Assembly: GCA_963663405.2 (NCBI GenBank)
Contig: CAXXSM010000007.1
Span: 1-41,201 of the forward strand
Source of the DNA: a bacterium
Lineage (GTDB): Bacteria; Hinthialibacterota; Hinthialibacteria; Hinthialibacterales; Hinthialibacteraceae
DNA length: 41,201 bases
Direction of reading: 5' to 3'
Under the pieces are notes generated by a model, which was not told where the DNA came from, made no database searches, and was given only the letters and a program-made list of their open reading frames with translations. The stretch's first letter is position 1, and each line of letters starts with the position of its first letter. Shown here piece by piece: positions 153 to 11,941 of the stretch. The position numbers and the translations under genes were made by a program.

Positions 153-377
153 TTATTAAATGAACTAATAAGCGCCCAAAATACAATAATGCAGAAAGGA
201 TTACGAAAACGGCTAAAACGAAAAGAAACTTAATAAGTGAACCTCCGCCTCTTTTTCGCCTGTATTTGTGGAGTCGATTTCTCGTTTCATCTGCGTTCTC
301 AATTTAGTATAGTAATTTTCTTTATTTATCTCACAATTCCTCTCACTTTTCAATATCCGCTAACGGCAAATCTAAGG

Positions 378-513
378 AAAAAAAAGACGGCGCATGGCGA
401 TGTTTTTTCAATGTTGTAGTATAGAAGGGAGAACCTTCACACACGCCGCCAACAATGAGAAAAAATGAGTTAATAGAGTTAATTTTAATACGCCAACCGA
501 TCGTTTACAGGGG
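378..513 (-). ncRNA. putative small RNA cassette, copy A (promoter-like box, hairpin, U8 terminator)
   Basis: Minus strand: CTGTAA-N17-TAAAAT (510-482), 11-bp stem GGCGGCGUGUG/CAUGCGCCGUC (450-440/396-386, three G-U pairs), U8 (385-378). Same architecture as 3528-3769. Confidence 0.5.
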
Positions 514-858
514 TATAGCAACGCAAAGGAATTTATAAATGGCGCCGTATGTAACAGCGGCCGTTTATCCCTCGAAGTTTTCTTTTACCGTTCAATCATC
601 ACAGGCAAAAGAGAAGGGATTGCGAACACTTATTCCTGGAGAGAAAGCGATTTAGTCTTTTAAGTTATGACGACTATCGCGCTGACCGTTCGTTCGTACC
701 GAGAAGGAAAGATGTTTTATTATGATGCCGAGAAAAAATCCCTGTGACATTGTGATCTCGTGACCTAGGATCTTTGGTTGTGAACGGAAAAGACCAGGTT
801 AGAATGACAAGACTCAATTGGAAGAAATAACATCACAGTAGATAGTAACGATTTGGAT

Positions 859-1769: not shown

Positions 1770-3042
1770 CTACTGTGTAGCCATACTCTTTTTGACCTCG
1801 GTGGGATGCCGATTAAACACTTCTTCTGTGATCTGTACAGTTGTCTTATTTATGGGAACATTTTGTATGATCTCAAGAATTTCTTGGTTGATGTCTTCAA
1901 ATGAGAATTCGGTTCTCGCTAAGAGAAGGCCGGTTTGACCCAATCTTCGCGCATACTCTGGATGTTTTAATAGGAGATTGATCGCATCAGCTAAGGCGAA
2001 AGGATCATTTGGGCGAACTAAAATACCTGTCTCATCGTCTTTTACGACTTCAGGAATCCCGCCACAATTCGATGCGATTACCGGGATTCCACACGAGGAC
2101 GCCTCGCAGGCGAATCGGCCCATAGTCTCATAATCTATTCCATACTTTAACGGATCATAAATGTTACGGCTGGGCATAAGCCCGATGTCTGAGGCTGATA
2201 GATAGAGCGGTAATTGATCGTGAGCGACTGGCCCAACAAATCTGACTCGATCAGAAACACCATAAGAGTAACACAAAGACCGCAATTGTTTGGTTTGAGG
2301 GCCGTGGCCGGCAATCACCAGTCGTAAATGCGGATTGTCGATCATTGATATCGCCTCTATGGCGACATCAATTCCCTTTTTTAGAACATGACGAGCTGCG
2401 ATAAATGCGATCGTAGAGTCTAAATCCCAACCCAATTGAACGCGAGCGTGGTGTTTCGATTCAGGTTGAAAACGGTTTGTATCCACACCACCGCGAATGA
2501 CTTGCAGTCTTTCAAATCCCTGTTTTGCTAGCTGACGCCGTGTCCATTCACTATTTGCACAGGATCGCTTGACATTGAGCGCCCTGCTCTTTTCGCCCAG
2601 ACCTTGTTCTCATGAATCCGCTGTTGCCTGACGTCGAATTGAAAGTGAATTCATCACCTGCCATGAAATATTAAATGGCCCTTCCCAAGGACGCAGGATA
2701 TCGTTTCCTGCGCTGCGACAGACGACTGGCGCAATTCCATCAAACGCCGGAGCCATTGCTGCCTGTGTTGTGAACACGGCCTGTGGGCTAAGTTTATGCG
2801 CAAGTCTTCTTAGCATTTGCATCCTGGCTTTAAAATCGTGATGGGGAAGAATACGCATGATCTCGATGCCAGAAGAGGAATCATAGTCCTCTGGTTTCTT
2901 TGACACTTTTAGAGTAATTATTCATGTTTGATAATACGTAATAAGGAATTTGACGGCGTTTTAAATACTTTGCAAATTCCATAGCCTGCACCTGGATTCC
3001 ACCGATCGCCGGAGGAAACTGAGGAAATACAAGTAGAATCAT
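1770..3042 (-). pseudogene. glycosyltransferase family 4 (GT-B), broken by several indels
   Basis: ATG at 3042 after AGGAGG reads MILLVFPQFPPAIGGIQ; middle piece ...CRSAGNDI...; then ANSEWTR...GGVDTNRFQP, KGID, and ETMGRFACEASSCGIPVIASNCGGIPEVV (GT4 EX7E motif). Pieces lie in different frames or contain a stop at 2610. Confidence 0.85.
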
Positions 3043-3058
3043 TTGACGTTCCTCCTTT

Positions 3059-3382
3059 CTACGAATCCTGACAATCCCAATCTATCTCTACACCGGATAA
3101 AGGCTCATCATCCTTAGTTGCTTCCCACTGATTTCCAAGCAATATCAATTTTCCACATACCGGATCAAAAACATTTACCGCTGTATAATCGATATCATCC
3201 TCGTACTCCGAATAATCCCGGTAAGACGTATCTCCATCTGTTACCCAATCCTGGGTGGCGCCGGATTGATTCTTGTGACGCCGTTCTTCGACGGATTTGG
3301 GGCAATTATCACAATACGGTTCAGAGCATTCCCCGCAGGTCTCAATCTTCCAGCAGTAGTCACAATTACGCTTCTCGTTCAT
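3059..3382 (-). CDS. small Cys-rich/acidic hypothetical protein (possible Zn-binding)
   Basis: Three CxxC pairs (CDYC, CGEC, CDNC) at the N-terminus and an acidic C-terminus; ends just upstream of the GT4 RBS. Confidence 0.55.
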   Translation of the reverse strand: MNEKRNCDYCWKIETCGECSEPYCDNCPKSVEERRHKNQSGATQDWVTDGDTSYRDYSEYEDDIDYTAVNVFDPVCGKLILLGNQWEATKDDEPLSGVEIDWDCQDS

Positions 3383-3527
3383 CGGTTCAGCCCATTCTTT
3401 TTTCTGCTCTCTTCATTAGGAATAGATATGGGCTTTTCTGGATAATTCTGATTTTTTTTATTTGTTTGGGATTTTTTTTTGATGGTGATGCGGATCAAGA
3501 AAATGATTTCGATTGATTCTCAGACGG

Positions 3528-3651
3528 AAAAAAAAGCGGCGGCGCGCAGAAGGGAAGCGGTTGGGGTAGGCCTCTGCAACGCGCCACCACAGCAAAACGT
3601 GAATTACATACATACGTTATCACACTCGACAGGGATGTATAGGGTGGAATT
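3528..3651 (-). ncRNA. putative small RNA cassette, copy B
   Basis: Minus strand: TCCACCCTATAC-N17-TAACGT (3648-3614), stem GUGGUGGCGC(GUU)GCAGA/UCUGCGCGCCGCCGC (3590-3573/3550-3536), U8 (3535-3528). Confidence 0.6.
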
Positions 3652-3769
3652 AAAAAAAACGCGGCACGTAGATCCAAGGGATTAAAAATGGGATGTCCGC
3701 TACGCGCCGCCATGTGACAAAATTGGCTCTTATTTTATCACAGTTGACAGCCACGTATAGGGTGGATTA
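3652..3769 (-). ncRNA. putative small RNA cassette, copy C (tandem with copy B)
   Basis: Minus strand: TCCACCCTATAC-N17-TAAAAT (3766-3732), 11-bp stem GCGGCGCGUAG/CUACGUGCCGC (3710-3700/3671-3661), U8 (3659-3652). Confidence 0.6.
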
Positions 3770-4018
3770 TCTCTCTGCAGCGAGTTTTTGTCTTGGGGAT
3801 ATTGTATATACCTGTTTTGAAATGGTGGCGCTTTCAAGAAATTCTAAGTGGAGAAATGGAAGAGAATTTGGCTATGGCTGAAATTTGAATTGATTAGAAA
3901 TGTGGTAAGAGAGGAAAAATGACTCACTTTATTTGCAAATGATAATTAAATGTCGCCGCCTTGTTTTCCAATCAGAGTTTTTTAATTTTTATCGTTAAAA
4001 AGTAAAACAAGAAAAAAG

Positions 4019-4411
4019 TTAATTATTTGTTATTAACGCTCGTAATCTCTCCCACACTTCAGCATAAAACACGTATCCACTTTCATCCATACCAAGCAGT
4101 AGGCCAAGATCCTTTGAATCATAGACCAAAAATCCAAACTTGGCGATCATATCAGGATGGGAGCGAATAAAGTCTGCCAATTCATCATCGCGTGGATGAA
4201 ACATTGTTCTCCAATGCGCGGGCCAATGTAGCAGAATTTCTTGTTCAGATGGTGTATCCAGACGTATCAATTGTTCACTTCGCAAGTCATACATATTCTC
4301 TACAGTCTCTGTAGAGATAAAATCAAATTCTCGCGCAACCCAATTACCGATTGGCTCAGTAATTTGATAATGGCTGATACTTTCTCCACTTTTGTTTTTT
4401 TTCGCTTCCAT
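4019..4411 (-). CDS. hypothetical protein (mobile-element type)
   Basis: Start re-assigned to ATG 4411 (MEAKKN) after a strong AAGGAGGTG RBS; directly downstream of 4425-4820. Confidence 0.7.
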   Translation of the reverse strand: MEAKKNKSGESISHYQITEPIGNWVAREFDFISTETVENMYDLRSEQLIRLDTPSEQEILLHWPAHWRTMFHPRDDELADFIRSHPDMIAKFGFLVYDSKDLGLLLGMDESGYVFYAEVWERLRALITNN

Positions 4412-4424
4412 TGTTATCACCTCC

Positions 4425-4820
4425 TTATATTGTCTCCAGGTATTCTTCTCCCTGCATCTCAGCGTATATTGCCTCGTTTTCCAATCCAACAACCGAATTG
4501 GATCGGATCATTTTCGATTCAAGTTTTTCTTTCAAAAACTCATTAACCTGCGTGAGTACACAAAGCGCAAACTTTATTTCTCTTGGCCGAAATGAATGGC
4601 TTGTCCTCCAAAGCCCATCTTTCAAATAGCGCGCTCCGAACGAAATTTGATAAAACGATTCATGCTCATCATTTTTCCCAAGACGCTTTTTTTCAAATAT
4701 CGCCGCCCGAATATTATTCATATCGATCACTTTTACCGGCTTGTTCGATTGCAGGTTATTTATACAAACTTTTTGAAACCGCTCTATACTGGTTTGCTTT
4801 TCCGTGTTGGATTCATCCAT
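4425..4820 (-). CDS. small putative ssDNA-binding-like protein of plasmids/ICEs
   Basis: ATG 4820 after GAGGT. KPVKVI..NNIRAAIFEK...YQISFGARYLKDGLWRTSHSFRPREI matches the 'KPV...IKAAIW.N...V.F.R.YKDG..WK.S.SF...DL' family I recall from mobile elements; the fold assignment is inference. Confidence 0.55.
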   Translation of the reverse strand: MDESNTEKQTSIERFQKVCINNLQSNKPVKVIDMNNIRAAIFEKKRLGKNDEHESFYQISFGARYLKDGLWRTSHSFRPREIKFALCVLTQVNEFLKEKLESKMIRSNSVVGLENEAIYAEMQGEEYLETI

Positions 4821-5107
4821 GGTTTTTACCTCATTTTTTTTATATGGCCATACGGCCGATTCATATCCTCGCGTTGATGGAGGACACCCTGATCCCTCCA
4901 TCTCAGCGATCATTACTCATCAGTTTTTTTAGTTATGGAACAGGTAAAATAGAATCCGTAATTACCAATGAAGATCTCTAAAAAATATCGGATTTTGGAG
5001 GTAGGTACTCGTGTAATATTTTATTCAGGTGGTTGAAGGGCTGAGAAAGTGGATAAAAATTGGTGTACTTATCTATCCAATGAAAAGAGGATCAAGAAGT
5101 GCGGATA

Positions 5108-5257: not shown

Positions 5258-5686
5258 TTATTTCCCAGTATACGTTCCACGGCCCACTTTCTCAATCGCT
5301 TTGTTTTTGACTTGTTTGTTCAGTTCTAGATACAGAACACGTCTTGGATCATTCGCTTTACTTTTGTATCCTTGCGCATTAAGCGCTTCCATAATTTCCT
5401 CAATTTTCATCGGTTTGGATCCTAACACCGCTATCAAGTGATCACCAAGTGATTTTTTCTTTCCCGAAGATCTTTCTTTTCCTCTTTTATCCTCAGGTTT
5501 TGGTTCACTCATTTTCGCTTTTGGCGCTGCCTTTCGTCCTCCAATCACTTGGGAAAGAGCATCCAAATGACTACGGGCTTCATCTAGGGCTGAGGTTTCA
5601 TTCTGCTGCGCTTTAGCTTTGACAAGATCAAGCAATTCGCTAAGAGAGTAATGTTGGAGAATTGTTGAAGCGTTCGGCTTTGCCAT
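5258..5686 (-). CDS. basic DNA-binding protein: N-terminal coiled coil, K-rich linker, C-terminal winged helix (H-NS/MvaT/Rok-like architecture)
   Basis: YSLSELLDLVKAK N-terminal helix, Lys-rich linker, and SLGDHLIAVLGSKPMKIEEIMEAL...GYKSKA...IEKVGRGTY winged-helix pattern. Confidence 0.6.
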   Translation of the reverse strand: MAKPNASTILQHYSLSELLDLVKAKAQQNETSALDEARSHLDALSQVIGGRKAAPKAKMSEPKPEDKRGKERSSGKKKSLGDHLIAVLGSKPMKIEEIMEALNAQGYKSKANDPRRVLYLELNKQVKNKAIEKVGRGTYTGK

Positions 5687-6043
5687 TGTTAAAACGACCT
5701 TTCTATTAATTGTAAAATTCTCTTGGGTAATACCAAGTATAATATATTGGCAATGTTTTGTCTATACTTTGCTAGCAAAATTATTTTATAACCTTATATA
5801 TTCTTCTATTCGAAATAGATTTTGAAGGGTATTCATTAATTGGATTTATACAAACATCTGGTCAACGATCATTATTTGATTTTGCTATAGCCTGACTGTC
5901 AATCGCACTTAATTGAGCAACCTACCTGACCATAATCTGATCCTCAAGAGCCGATTTCGAGTTGCTAGGACAACAAGACTATCACAAATCCAAAATATTC
6001 GTACAATGTGATAAATCCAGAATCGGATAGTAAAGGAGGCTTC

Positions 6044-6349
6044 GTGCAAAAGAAGGATATCATTCAACTCGTCGCAACAAGGATGCGTCAAATCGGGCAA
6101 CCGATTAAGATAAATCACATTAAGGTGATAGTGGAATGTGTCTTGGAAGTATTTATCGATCAGCTCAAGAAAAGTGGGCGAATAGAAATCCGTAATTTTG
6201 GTGTTTTCAATCTCAAGAAGACTCCATCTCGAATCGGGCGAAATCCTATCACTGGAGAAGAAGCCGAAATTAAGGCTCGATACTTCGTACAGTTCAAGGC
6301 CGGGAGAACAATGAAGAAATCTGTCGCTCAAAAGAAAACGCTTAAATGA
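6044..6349 (+). CDS. HU/IHF-family histone-like DNA-binding protein
   Basis: GTG 6044 after AAAGGAGG; GRIEIRNFGVF...RIGRNPITGEE..I.ARYFVQFKAG signature. Confidence 0.93.
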   Translation: MQKKDIIQLVATRMRQIGQPIKINHIKVIVECVLEVFIDQLKKSGRIEIRNFGVFNLKKTPSRIGRNPITGEEAEIKARYFVQFKAGRTMKKSVAQKKTLK

Positions 6350-11593: not shown

Positions 11594-11941
11594 ATGACAG
11601 ACAAAAAACTATCCTCGCTAAGTCCGCTCGAGTGGAAAATTATGCGGATCGTTTGTGAATTGAAAAAGTGCGCGGCGCGGGATGTGTATCAAATCACAAA
11701 AGAGAAATTGGATATGCATCCCGGCACAACCCGTACTTTATTGCGTCGCTTGGTTGATAAAGGGCATCTCAAAACTCAGCAGATTGGGAATTGTTTCGTT
11801 AATGAGCCCAAAGTCTCGCTGATCGATTCGGTTATGAATGAGACCGATATTCTCTTCGATCATGCGCTGGATGGAAACGCGGGATTGATGATGGGATGGC
11901 TGAGTTTTTTTTTCTTTTCTACTTTTTCGGCTGGGAATTAG
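11594..11941 (+). pseudogene. BlaI/MecI/CopY-family repressor, C-terminally truncated
   Basis: LSPLEWKIMRIV...TTRTLLRRLVDKGHL; similarity ends about 11895 and runs into a T-rich non-coding-like tail; no M56 partner follows. Confidence 0.8.

Follow-up and report, generated by a model that had tools for sequence, protein, structure and literature searches.

The window analysed here is a whole 41.2-kb contig (C7; 41,201 nucleotides, nt) from the 8.44-Mb, 170-contig and 82% complete assembly of a bacterium of the phylum Hinthialibacterota. At positions 3528 to 3769, two units of about 120 bp stand in tandem on its minus strand, each combining a box, an extended -10 element, a short leader, a GC-rich hairpin and a run of U. 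We report that these two units belong to a multicopy family of 9 to 10 members in this genome. Our preferred interpretation, to which we give slightly less than even weight, is that the copies encode small RNAs that are siblings of one another, form a family specific to the lineage and display C-rich motifs in single-stranded form. These RNAs would act in the manner of LhrC and NsiR1 and are not homologous to either. As judged from the sequences, the family is for now known in silico only, from one genome and a near relative.

Two tandem units and their copies in the genome

The presence of two tandem units is confirmed by direct reading of the sequence (Table 1). Units 1 and 2 are arranged head-to-tail on the minus strand, and each carries an exact copy of the box TCCACCCTATAC, which has just 2 exact matches in the window. 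In both, a gap of exactly 17 nt ending in TGA separates the box from the -10, and a leader of 21 to 23 nt lies between the -10 and the GC-rich stem, whose apical region measures 28-31 nt. The original prediction, made from the letters of the window, had described this order of elements, including the TG-preceded -10, the eight U and G-U pairs within the stems on the minus strand, and it is borne out on all these points. It had also reported loops that differ completely between the copies: leader and apex do diverge, but both units hold CCCUU(G/C), the UCCCUU-type motif that the same prediction had noticed and that recurs in the family. The run of exactly eight U is likewise found in units 1 and 2, but it is not a fixed property, as it ranges from 5 to 9 in the other units and is shorter in the relative described below. 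By their sequence, the units do appear self-contained on the minus strand, with a conserved -10, a short leader, a helix at the RNA level and a U tract, and the independently transcribed small RNAs of the original prediction are a plausible reading.

A repeat search between the two units returned a 32-nt promoter block (27/32 identical, at a spacing of 118), a 17-nt 5′ arm (82%) and a 13-nt 3′ arm with its T run (92%). Identity by segment reaches 29/38 in the promoter, 9/11 in the 5′ stem, 9/11 in the 3′ stem and 9/11 in the tail, as against 12/26 in the leader and 16/36 in the apical part. This conserved scaffold with a divergent leader and apex makes a mosaic unlike uniform drift after duplication. 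Moreover, the minus-strand folds of units 1 and 2 are better than those of shuffled sequences (z of -2.0 and -3.0), and the plus-strand folds are no better (z of -0.1 and -1.5). Significance rests on the whole unit, because the box by itself is not significant in the window (3 matches with up to two mismatches, vs 1.8 expected). An inverted partial copy considered at 3814-3839 was rejected, its local alignment score of 22 being lower than the shuffle mean of 26.

Further copies could be reached only with a covariance model, because short-word BLASTN within the genome found nothing but chance words of 14-19 nt. Model R1, built from units 1 and 2, gave two full-length matches on contig C6 (45 and 43 bits, E of 3e-6 and 1e-5), and also weakly matched the window at 517-366 (11.7 bits, E 0.46). 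We accepted the latter on its features as a third, more diverged unit of the window, in line with the third copy implied by the original prediction. It has a GUGUGAAGGU..CCCU stretch in common with C20_3, one of the units on contig C20; since it served as a seed for the refined model R2 and the final model R3, its later scores are circular and not independent. R2 matched three tandem units on C20 and one unit on contig C119, directly upstream of which nhmmer placed a weak second C119 unit (E 0.45), the tenth of the family. R3, made from 9 sequences, has 9 matches in this genome, on contigs C7, C6, C20 and C119, and the phylum's other 34 genomes gave no match at E≤0.1; these scans covered the 35 species genomes of the phylum in our collection, with 96 first-look candidates scored per genome.

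Simpler patterns added no copy. Matches to the box with up to three mismatches were no commoner across the phylum than in a reversed control. The stem-scaffold pattern had 0 matches in viral contigs; it matched genome contigs 8 times and metagenome contigs 47 times, all discarded as high-GC chance occurrences devoid of the unit architecture. BLASTN of 3400-3900 and of the C20 array gave no match in phages and plasmids. Rfam, searched with the window, gave nothing at the gathering score, and the four weak matches obtained for 3300-4000 at E≤10 all lie off the units; at E≤0.1, the stretches holding the C6, C20 and C119 units gave nothing on the units. The family is thus absent from Rfam, as its first description as unrecognised had suggested, and the covariance search proposed at that time led to more copies in the same genome.

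Each unit of the family has a hairpin and a U tract that always lies 3′ of the hairpin. The hairpin is found ~20-35 nt downstream of the conserved -10, its apex measures 17-43 nt, and no gene lies between tandem units. The GC-rich stem stands directly 5′ of the U tract, as in intrinsic terminators, and each copy would accordingly possess, by sequence, its own promoter and its own terminator. A simple terminator scanner missed the units because it takes loops of 3-8 nt only. As to the origin of the copies, both C6 units fall within an inverted duplication of ~540-660 nt, which also contains the 5′ ends of two paralogous genes for secreted lectin-like proteins. The C119 locus is a ~85% identical paralogue of the C20 locus, and its third unit is reduced to a promoter standing before a 137-amino-acid (aa) gene. 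We also noted that the lectin-like genes of the C6 locus (G000:C6:14153-22771), of 676 aa and 1363 aa, point away from each other on either side of a ~2.5-kb centre, and that the duplication takes in their upstream regions with one unit each.

Table 1. Positions of the units, of their elements and of the adjacent genes (window coordinates unless a contig is named)
Feature	Positions	Strand	Basis or remark
Unit 1, whole cassette (box, -10, leader, hairpin, U8)	3649..3769	-	Sequence read; covariance model 144 bits with R1, 97 bits with R3
Unit 1 box TCCACCCTATAC	3755..3766	-	Exact match; inside the 32-nt block shared with unit 2
Unit 1 extended -10, TG-A-TAAAAT	3732..3740 (TAAAAT 3737-3732)	-	Sequence read; TAnnnT columns conserved
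Unit 1 hairpin, 11-bp stem 3710-3700/3671-3661, 1 G.U; 28-nt apex	3660..3710	-	Fold
Unit 1 U8 tract	3652..3659	-	Sequence read
Unit 2, whole cassette	3651-3528	-	Sequence read; covariance model 145 bits with R1, 102 bits with R3
Unit 2 box TCCACCCTATAC	3637..3648	-	Exact match
Unit 2 extended -10, TG-A-TAACGT	3614..3622 (TAACGT 3619-3614)	-	Sequence read; TAnnnT columns conserved
Unit 2 hairpin, 12-bp stem 3590-3579/3547-3536, 3 G.U; apex CCCUUC (3554-3549)	3536..3590	-	Fold
Unit 2 U8 tract	3528..3535	-	Sequence read
Third, more diverged unit: TAAAAT, stem GGCGGCGUGUG.../...CAUGCGCCGUC, apex CCCUUC, U8	366..517	-	Accepted on features
C6 units	C6 18454-18317; C6 16219-16354	-; +	R1 covariance search
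C20 triple tandem units	C20 9785-9448	-	R2 covariance search
130-aa gene, upstream of the units	4411-4022	-	Strong AAGGAGGTGA ribosome-binding site
107-aa cysteine-rich open reading frame, downstream of the units	3382-3059	-	Nearly an orphan
Family-4 glycosyltransferase gene, next after the 107-aa open reading frame, split in three open reading frames (53 aa, 98 aa, 238 aa)	1770-3042	-	

Conservation of the promoter, the helix and the C-rich motif

The -10 element is conserved throughout the family: in the 9 aligned units, the TAnnnT columns are kept in 9/9, both T being invariant and the A being present in at least eight. Columns kept in all or all but one of these units are mainly T..TA...T, which includes the T three bases before TAnnnT, the core of both stem arms and the U tract. 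The -10 is extended by TGn in units 1 and 2 and in C6b. The C20 and C119 units read TTGAAC-N17/18-TGnTAAGAT or TATAGT, the same type of promoter as the TTGACA-N17-TATAAT of the tRNA genes of this genome. No usable -35 is seen in the C7 and C6 units, which have ~9 extra nt (CCCTATAC...). Indeed, the covariance-model alignment shows ACCCTATAC or a variant in the C7 and C6 units opposite a gap of 9 columns in the C20 units, and these extra columns shift the TTGAAC-like word out of register, so that the C7 and C6 units would depend on their -10. Taken together, these features suggest a sigma-70-type promoter in each cassette, and the alternative sigma factor that the original prediction had invoked to account for a non-consensus -35 seems superfluous.

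The basal helix shows some covariation. When five units are compared, 94.4% of its 54 cells are paired and 6/11 pairs vary one-sidedly; 10 cells are wobble pairs, and A.C, the form that a wobble of the opposite strand would take here, is absent among the 3 unpaired cells. Over nine units, 91.3% of 92 cells are paired and 3 pairs have changed on both sides (GC<->AU), with a covariation score of 0.328 vs 0.249 in shuffled alignments, a value reached by 3/500 shuffles; slid partners, used as a control, are 18-58% paired. These figures are supportive rather than decisive, the sequences being paralogous and their alignment (A4) having been fitted to the structure.

The C-rich motif is recurrent. 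CCCTTC occurs in 6/10 units, a count reached by 0/2000 shuffles and equivalent to 4/8 lineages once the C20/C119 duplicates are counted singly, and near variants are found in unit 1 (CCCTTG) and C20_3 (CCCTCA). It lies in the apex, except in C20_2 and C119_2 where it is in the leader; the apex of unit 1 includes AUCCCA as well as CCCUUG (3680-3675). In addition, only 2/24 positions differ between the apices of the recent duplicates C20_1 and C119_1 (CAGGAYAUCCCUUCWACUGCAUGG), while the stem has changed and partly re-paired. The apex being better kept than the stem in this pair, it is not a free spacer, and the variable seed or guide envisaged in the original prediction is not supported by these two observations. 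A U-rich UUUUG stretch is present 0-7 nt before the stem in units 1 and 2, C6a, C6b and C20_3.

Contigs from four DNA sequencing runs were compared with positions 2900-4600. A natural relative from a different study (X2 record 5, 2915 nt, ~95% identical) spans the whole compared stretch, with 73 substitutions and 15 gaps. Since this one contig bridges both units, the two-unit layout is independently confirmed. The short contigs of X1, the run with the best match to the window, break inside unit 2 (window 3480-3602). Such breaks are expected at a short tandem repeat, and the copy number of the arrays in the assembly may thus be uncertain.

In the relative, the 51-nt hairpin of unit 1 has 0 listed changes vs 6.2% in the flanks, which by our own arithmetic has a chance of ~0.04 at the flank rate. 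The leader of unit 1 has 6 listed changes, its -10 has become TAGAAT (change at 3735) with the TG retained, which is still a -10, and its U tract is one shorter (7). The box of unit 2 has a T>G change at 3641. The remainder of 3383-3741 has 19 listed substitutions in 308 nt, and the downstream 107-aa open reading frame (ORF) has 20 in 324 nt, just 9 of them at third codon positions. From these comparisons, unit 1 appears to be under constraint, and its sibling, unit 2, to be decaying or changing fast. In a 104-nt contig of the same run (X2 record 7), a hairpin resembling that of unit 1 stands between different flanks and is followed by ..CCCCTTGAACC, a junction of the C20/C119 array type, which indicates that the relative has further copies. 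Finally, peptide coding by the ORFs running through the hairpins (3495-3713 and 3458-3613) was rejected, because the relative has out-of-frame indels in them and the hairpin lengths among units differ by non-multiples of 3.

Possible mode of action and competing explanations

The units belong to no named family and, by analogy, would work like known sibling small RNAs. Four of the LhrC copies of Listeria stand in tandem. In the LhrC study cited here, LhrC of Listeria monocytogenes is a five-copy small RNA in which UCCC motifs at three sites, the terminator loop among them, bind the Shine-Dalgarno region of lapB (PMC4132741). LhrC1-5 and the present units would be alike in being homologous copies in one genome, small RNAs with an intrinsic terminator and C-rich motifs in loops and in a single-stranded stretch. 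They differ in that the present units have one hairpin where LhrC has two, share no sequence or Rfam match with it and come from an uncultured lineage rather than a low-GC Gram-positive one. As for NsiR1, each repeat has its own promoter and terminator. In the work on Nostoc referred to here, NsiR1 is encoded by a tandem repeat array whose different versions hit different targets (PMC9045159). Head-to-tail repeats that each encode a short RNA, with slightly different copies, would be common to both systems, but the present arrays comprise only 2-3 units, are scattered over four contigs and have no Rfam match. A cyanobacterial host, and NsiR1 itself, were rejected on the grounds that the genome, at its 82% completeness, has no Photo_RC match and a modest HIP1 count (602), and that Rfam gave no match. 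The pairs OmrA/OmrB and PrrF1/PrrF2 offer a further parallel, as adjacent paralogous small-RNA genes with their own promoter and terminator, conserved ends and diverging internal parts. Those families have known regulators and are conserved across genera, whereas the present one was met only in one genome and in a relative ~95% identical to it.

We propose the following scheme. Transcription would start ~7 nt past the -10, near 3725 and 3607, and would proceed through a 13-25 nt leader with the U-rich UUUUG into a GC-clamped hairpin that would also be the intrinsic terminator, stopping in the U tract, which predicts RNAs about 75-100 nt long. Their working part would be the single-stranded CCCUUC or a near variant, located in the apex of the terminator hairpin (in the leader for C20_2 and C119_2), which may act in trans by pairing with G-rich, Shine-Dalgarno-like sequences of mRNAs. 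Ribosome-binding sites of this genome are of the AAGGAG type and, as we infer, CCUUC can pair with GGAGG through one G.U. A U-rich stretch followed by a hairpin and a poly-U tail is an Hfq-binding module. An Hfq gene is present in the genome (82.7 bits; C2:4244-4432), where ProQ was not found, and Hfq may aid the pairing by binding such a module in the predicted RNAs. New copies would be generated within accessory DNA, both in tandem and by segmental duplication, and part of them would later decay.

The divergence between copies is much higher in the apices (44-45% identity) than in the stems (73-91%). On a more speculative note, and with little confidence, one may picture self-amplifying and fast-diversifying RNAs of the accessory genome, each with its own promoter and terminator and with a GC clamp displaying an apex that would vary rapidly around a preserved C-rich core, a programmable translation-blocking or decoy family serving conflicts between mobile elements and host rather than a housekeeping regulator. 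If expressed, the units would give this little-known phylum its first described family of small RNAs, and would be a compact natural example of the birth and decay of sibling small RNAs by duplication of a ~120-bp self-sufficient gene. They would also provide promoter variants with and without a -35 among duplicated cassettes, and would extend the C-rich terminator-hairpin loop design of Firmicutes to a distant lineage. The R3 model allows annotators to mark these units.

Several observations weigh against sibling small RNAs acting in this way. On the side of the targets, GAAGGG, the exact complement of the motif, precedes an ATG and a long ORF at 2.4% of its sites, vs 11.6% for AAGGAG. Sites of 14-19 nt complementary to the apices were found in the genome, but they are intergenic or gene-internal, none being a start region or a convincing target. 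No sequencing run recorded as RNA contains the stretch. Within the family, C6a and C6b are without CCCUUC, the sense hairpin is stabler than the antisense one in only 6/10 units, and G.U counts over whole minimum-free-energy folds are 16 vs 12. All copies come from one genome and their kinship inflates the statistics of motif and covariation; the alignment of the helix was fitted to the structure, and the R2 and R3 scores of their own seeds are circular. In the relative, the listing of differences stops at 3741 and some may be missing from it. Its unit 2 hairpin has 6 substitutions and 1 insertion, with the loss of CCCUUC and of 3 stem bp (from -28.9 to -18.4 kcal/mol), and its U tract is two U shorter (6). 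The G-to-A changes at 3545 and 3580 disrupt pairs of the minus strand, and the corresponding plus-strand pairs would be G.U. In a second variant, X3 record 10, the fold of unit 2 reaches -27.9 via a shifted register.

What else could these units be? The first alternative, unlikely but deserving real attention, is that they are duplicated promoter-terminator punctuation devoid of a trans function, an intergenic module closing one transcript and opening another, which slippage and segmental duplication would have copied in unstable accessory DNA, any short RNAs being by-products. Every locus is intergenic with a same-orientation gene downstream, at 146 nt for the 107-aa ORF, 73 nt for C6b and 225-420 nt for C119/C20, and these downstream genes are unrelated. 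The third promoter copy of C119, which precedes its gene without a hairpin, the decay of unit 2 in the relative and the low-GC contigs rich in transposase fragments all go in the same direction. Ordinary Rho-independent terminators also show a GC-rich stem and then a U run on the transcribed strand, but the present units differ from them by their unusually large apices, their recurrent motif, their own -10 and their tandem arrangement with no intervening gene. Duplicated punctuation does not account for the persistence of CCCUUC in otherwise unalignable apices, for the better keeping of the apex than of the stem between C20_1 and C119_1, or for the 28-nt apex of unit 1 without a listed change in the relative, and the inner units of an array have nothing to punctuate.

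The same arrangement of a terminator between a promoter and a gene, with the downstream gene in the same orientation in all loci examined, could be that of cis-acting leaders or attenuators. A trans factor would bind the C-rich apex and switch read-through into the gene, and the arrays would be stacked copies. We consider this improbable. Indeed, no antiterminator pairing is apparent in the folds of the 13-25 nt leaders, the downstream genes are unrelated and none is common to the loci, and C6a has been retained although the ORF downstream of it no longer has a start codon. A shared orientation in about 3 independent loci is furthermore not significant.

Guide-like, decoy or antitoxin RNAs of a conflict system, whose apex would recognise foreign nucleic acid or neutralise a neighbouring toxin, seem highly improbable to us. 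The apices do diverge fast between paralogues, and a family-4 glycosyltransferase (GT4) is encoded in the island, its homologue in a relative, beside SSB and resolvase genes, scoring 22 bits with 'GT4 in conflict systems' for a cut-off of 26. However, the neighbourhoods of C7, C6 and C20/C119 have no protein family in common, so that neither the partner required for the antitoxin and guide readings of the original prediction nor the co-conserved neighbour it had looked to was found there. The flanking small ORFs have no Pfam, PHROG or NCBIfam match, and relatives with the 130-aa gene have no cassettes. The architecture too is different. Type III toxin-antitoxin loci (ToxI-like) have short tandem repeats under one promoter, then one terminator and a conserved endoribonuclease toxin gene; we rejected this class since each unit here has its own terminator and the downstream genes differ between loci and have no family matches. 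A CRISPR-like or guide array was likewise set aside, the loci having no common neighbouring protein and the apices sharing a motif instead of being free spacers; no Cas-type family was present among the 36 window ORFs scanned against Pfam.

Least credible of all is a DNA-level repeat, such as a miniature inverted-repeat transposable element, a repetitive extragenic palindrome or a recombination site whose hairpin acts as DNA: the units are multicopy, hairpin-bearing and intergenic in mobile-element-rich DNA, have CCAC-type words on both flanks (e.g. U-tract-AUGCCCACC after C6a) and fold equally well or better as antisense hairpins in 4/10 cases, but instead of terminal inverted repeats and many dispersed copies we found just about 10 copies whose homology extends ~65 nt upstream of the hairpin on one side, so that the inverted repeat does not bound the element, with a U tract always one-sided, 10 sense-strand wobble cells to 0 A.C cells in the basal helix, and C6a and C6b copied within an inverted duplication that includes gene starts and not as free elements.

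Genomic setting

The four contigs with units (C7, C6, C20 and C119) all fall between the 4th and the 19th percentile of the assembly, in its low-GC tail, and the mobile backbone seen in the original prediction is indeed low-GC, transposase-rich accessory DNA. Within the window, transposases are dense from 17741 to 37965 (IS1-like, DDE_Tnp_1 in two pieces, IS21 istA/istB, ISL3 in two pieces, Mutator-like and DDE_Tnp_1_4), which marks the contig as highly rearranged accessory DNA.

Upstream of the units, the 130-aa gene has relatives in 6/35 phylum genomes, this one included, and genes for a 140-aa protein, SSB, GT4 and a resolvase are found with them; no cassettes were found downstream of these relatives in the other phylum genomes. 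The 130-aa protein had no relative in metagenome contigs and no usable match in the protein atlas, in which the 107-aa protein gave only leads below 0.9 (small viral zinc-ribbon proteins). The 130-aa gene forms with a gene of about 132 aa a small-gene pair (window 4022-4913, minus strand), found in 6/35 genomes and usually beside SSB (L084 in G010:C8, L085 in G014:C92, and L024-L028); in G010, GT4, serine resolvase and MazE-like genes are added to it. This pair looks like a mobile module. Of the three GT4 ORFs of the window, that of 53 aa has the N-terminal FPP..GG motif and that of 238 aa the Glycos_transf_1 domain. The split reflects either assembly frameshifts or a pseudogene, and an intact 435-aa homologue adjoins the same two-gene module in G010.

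We also noticed that the intergenic stretch 3846-3866 of the window, downstream of the 130-aa gene, is complementary to the start region of the 130-aa gene, 4381-4412, on the same transcript strand (11/11 and 11/12 nt), which could be a 3′-5′ pairing or the remnant of an inverted duplication. Farther along the contig, a BlaI-type repressor gene stands alone at 11594-11941 (+), and a BlaR1 (M56 peptidase) and BlaI pair lies at the contig end (38969-41088, -). The low-GC island of the units also holds a gene for an HU/IHF-like DNA-binding protein (6008-6349, +) and a 142-aa ORF without a family match (5258-5686, -), the C-terminus of which gives the impression of a candidate winged helix.

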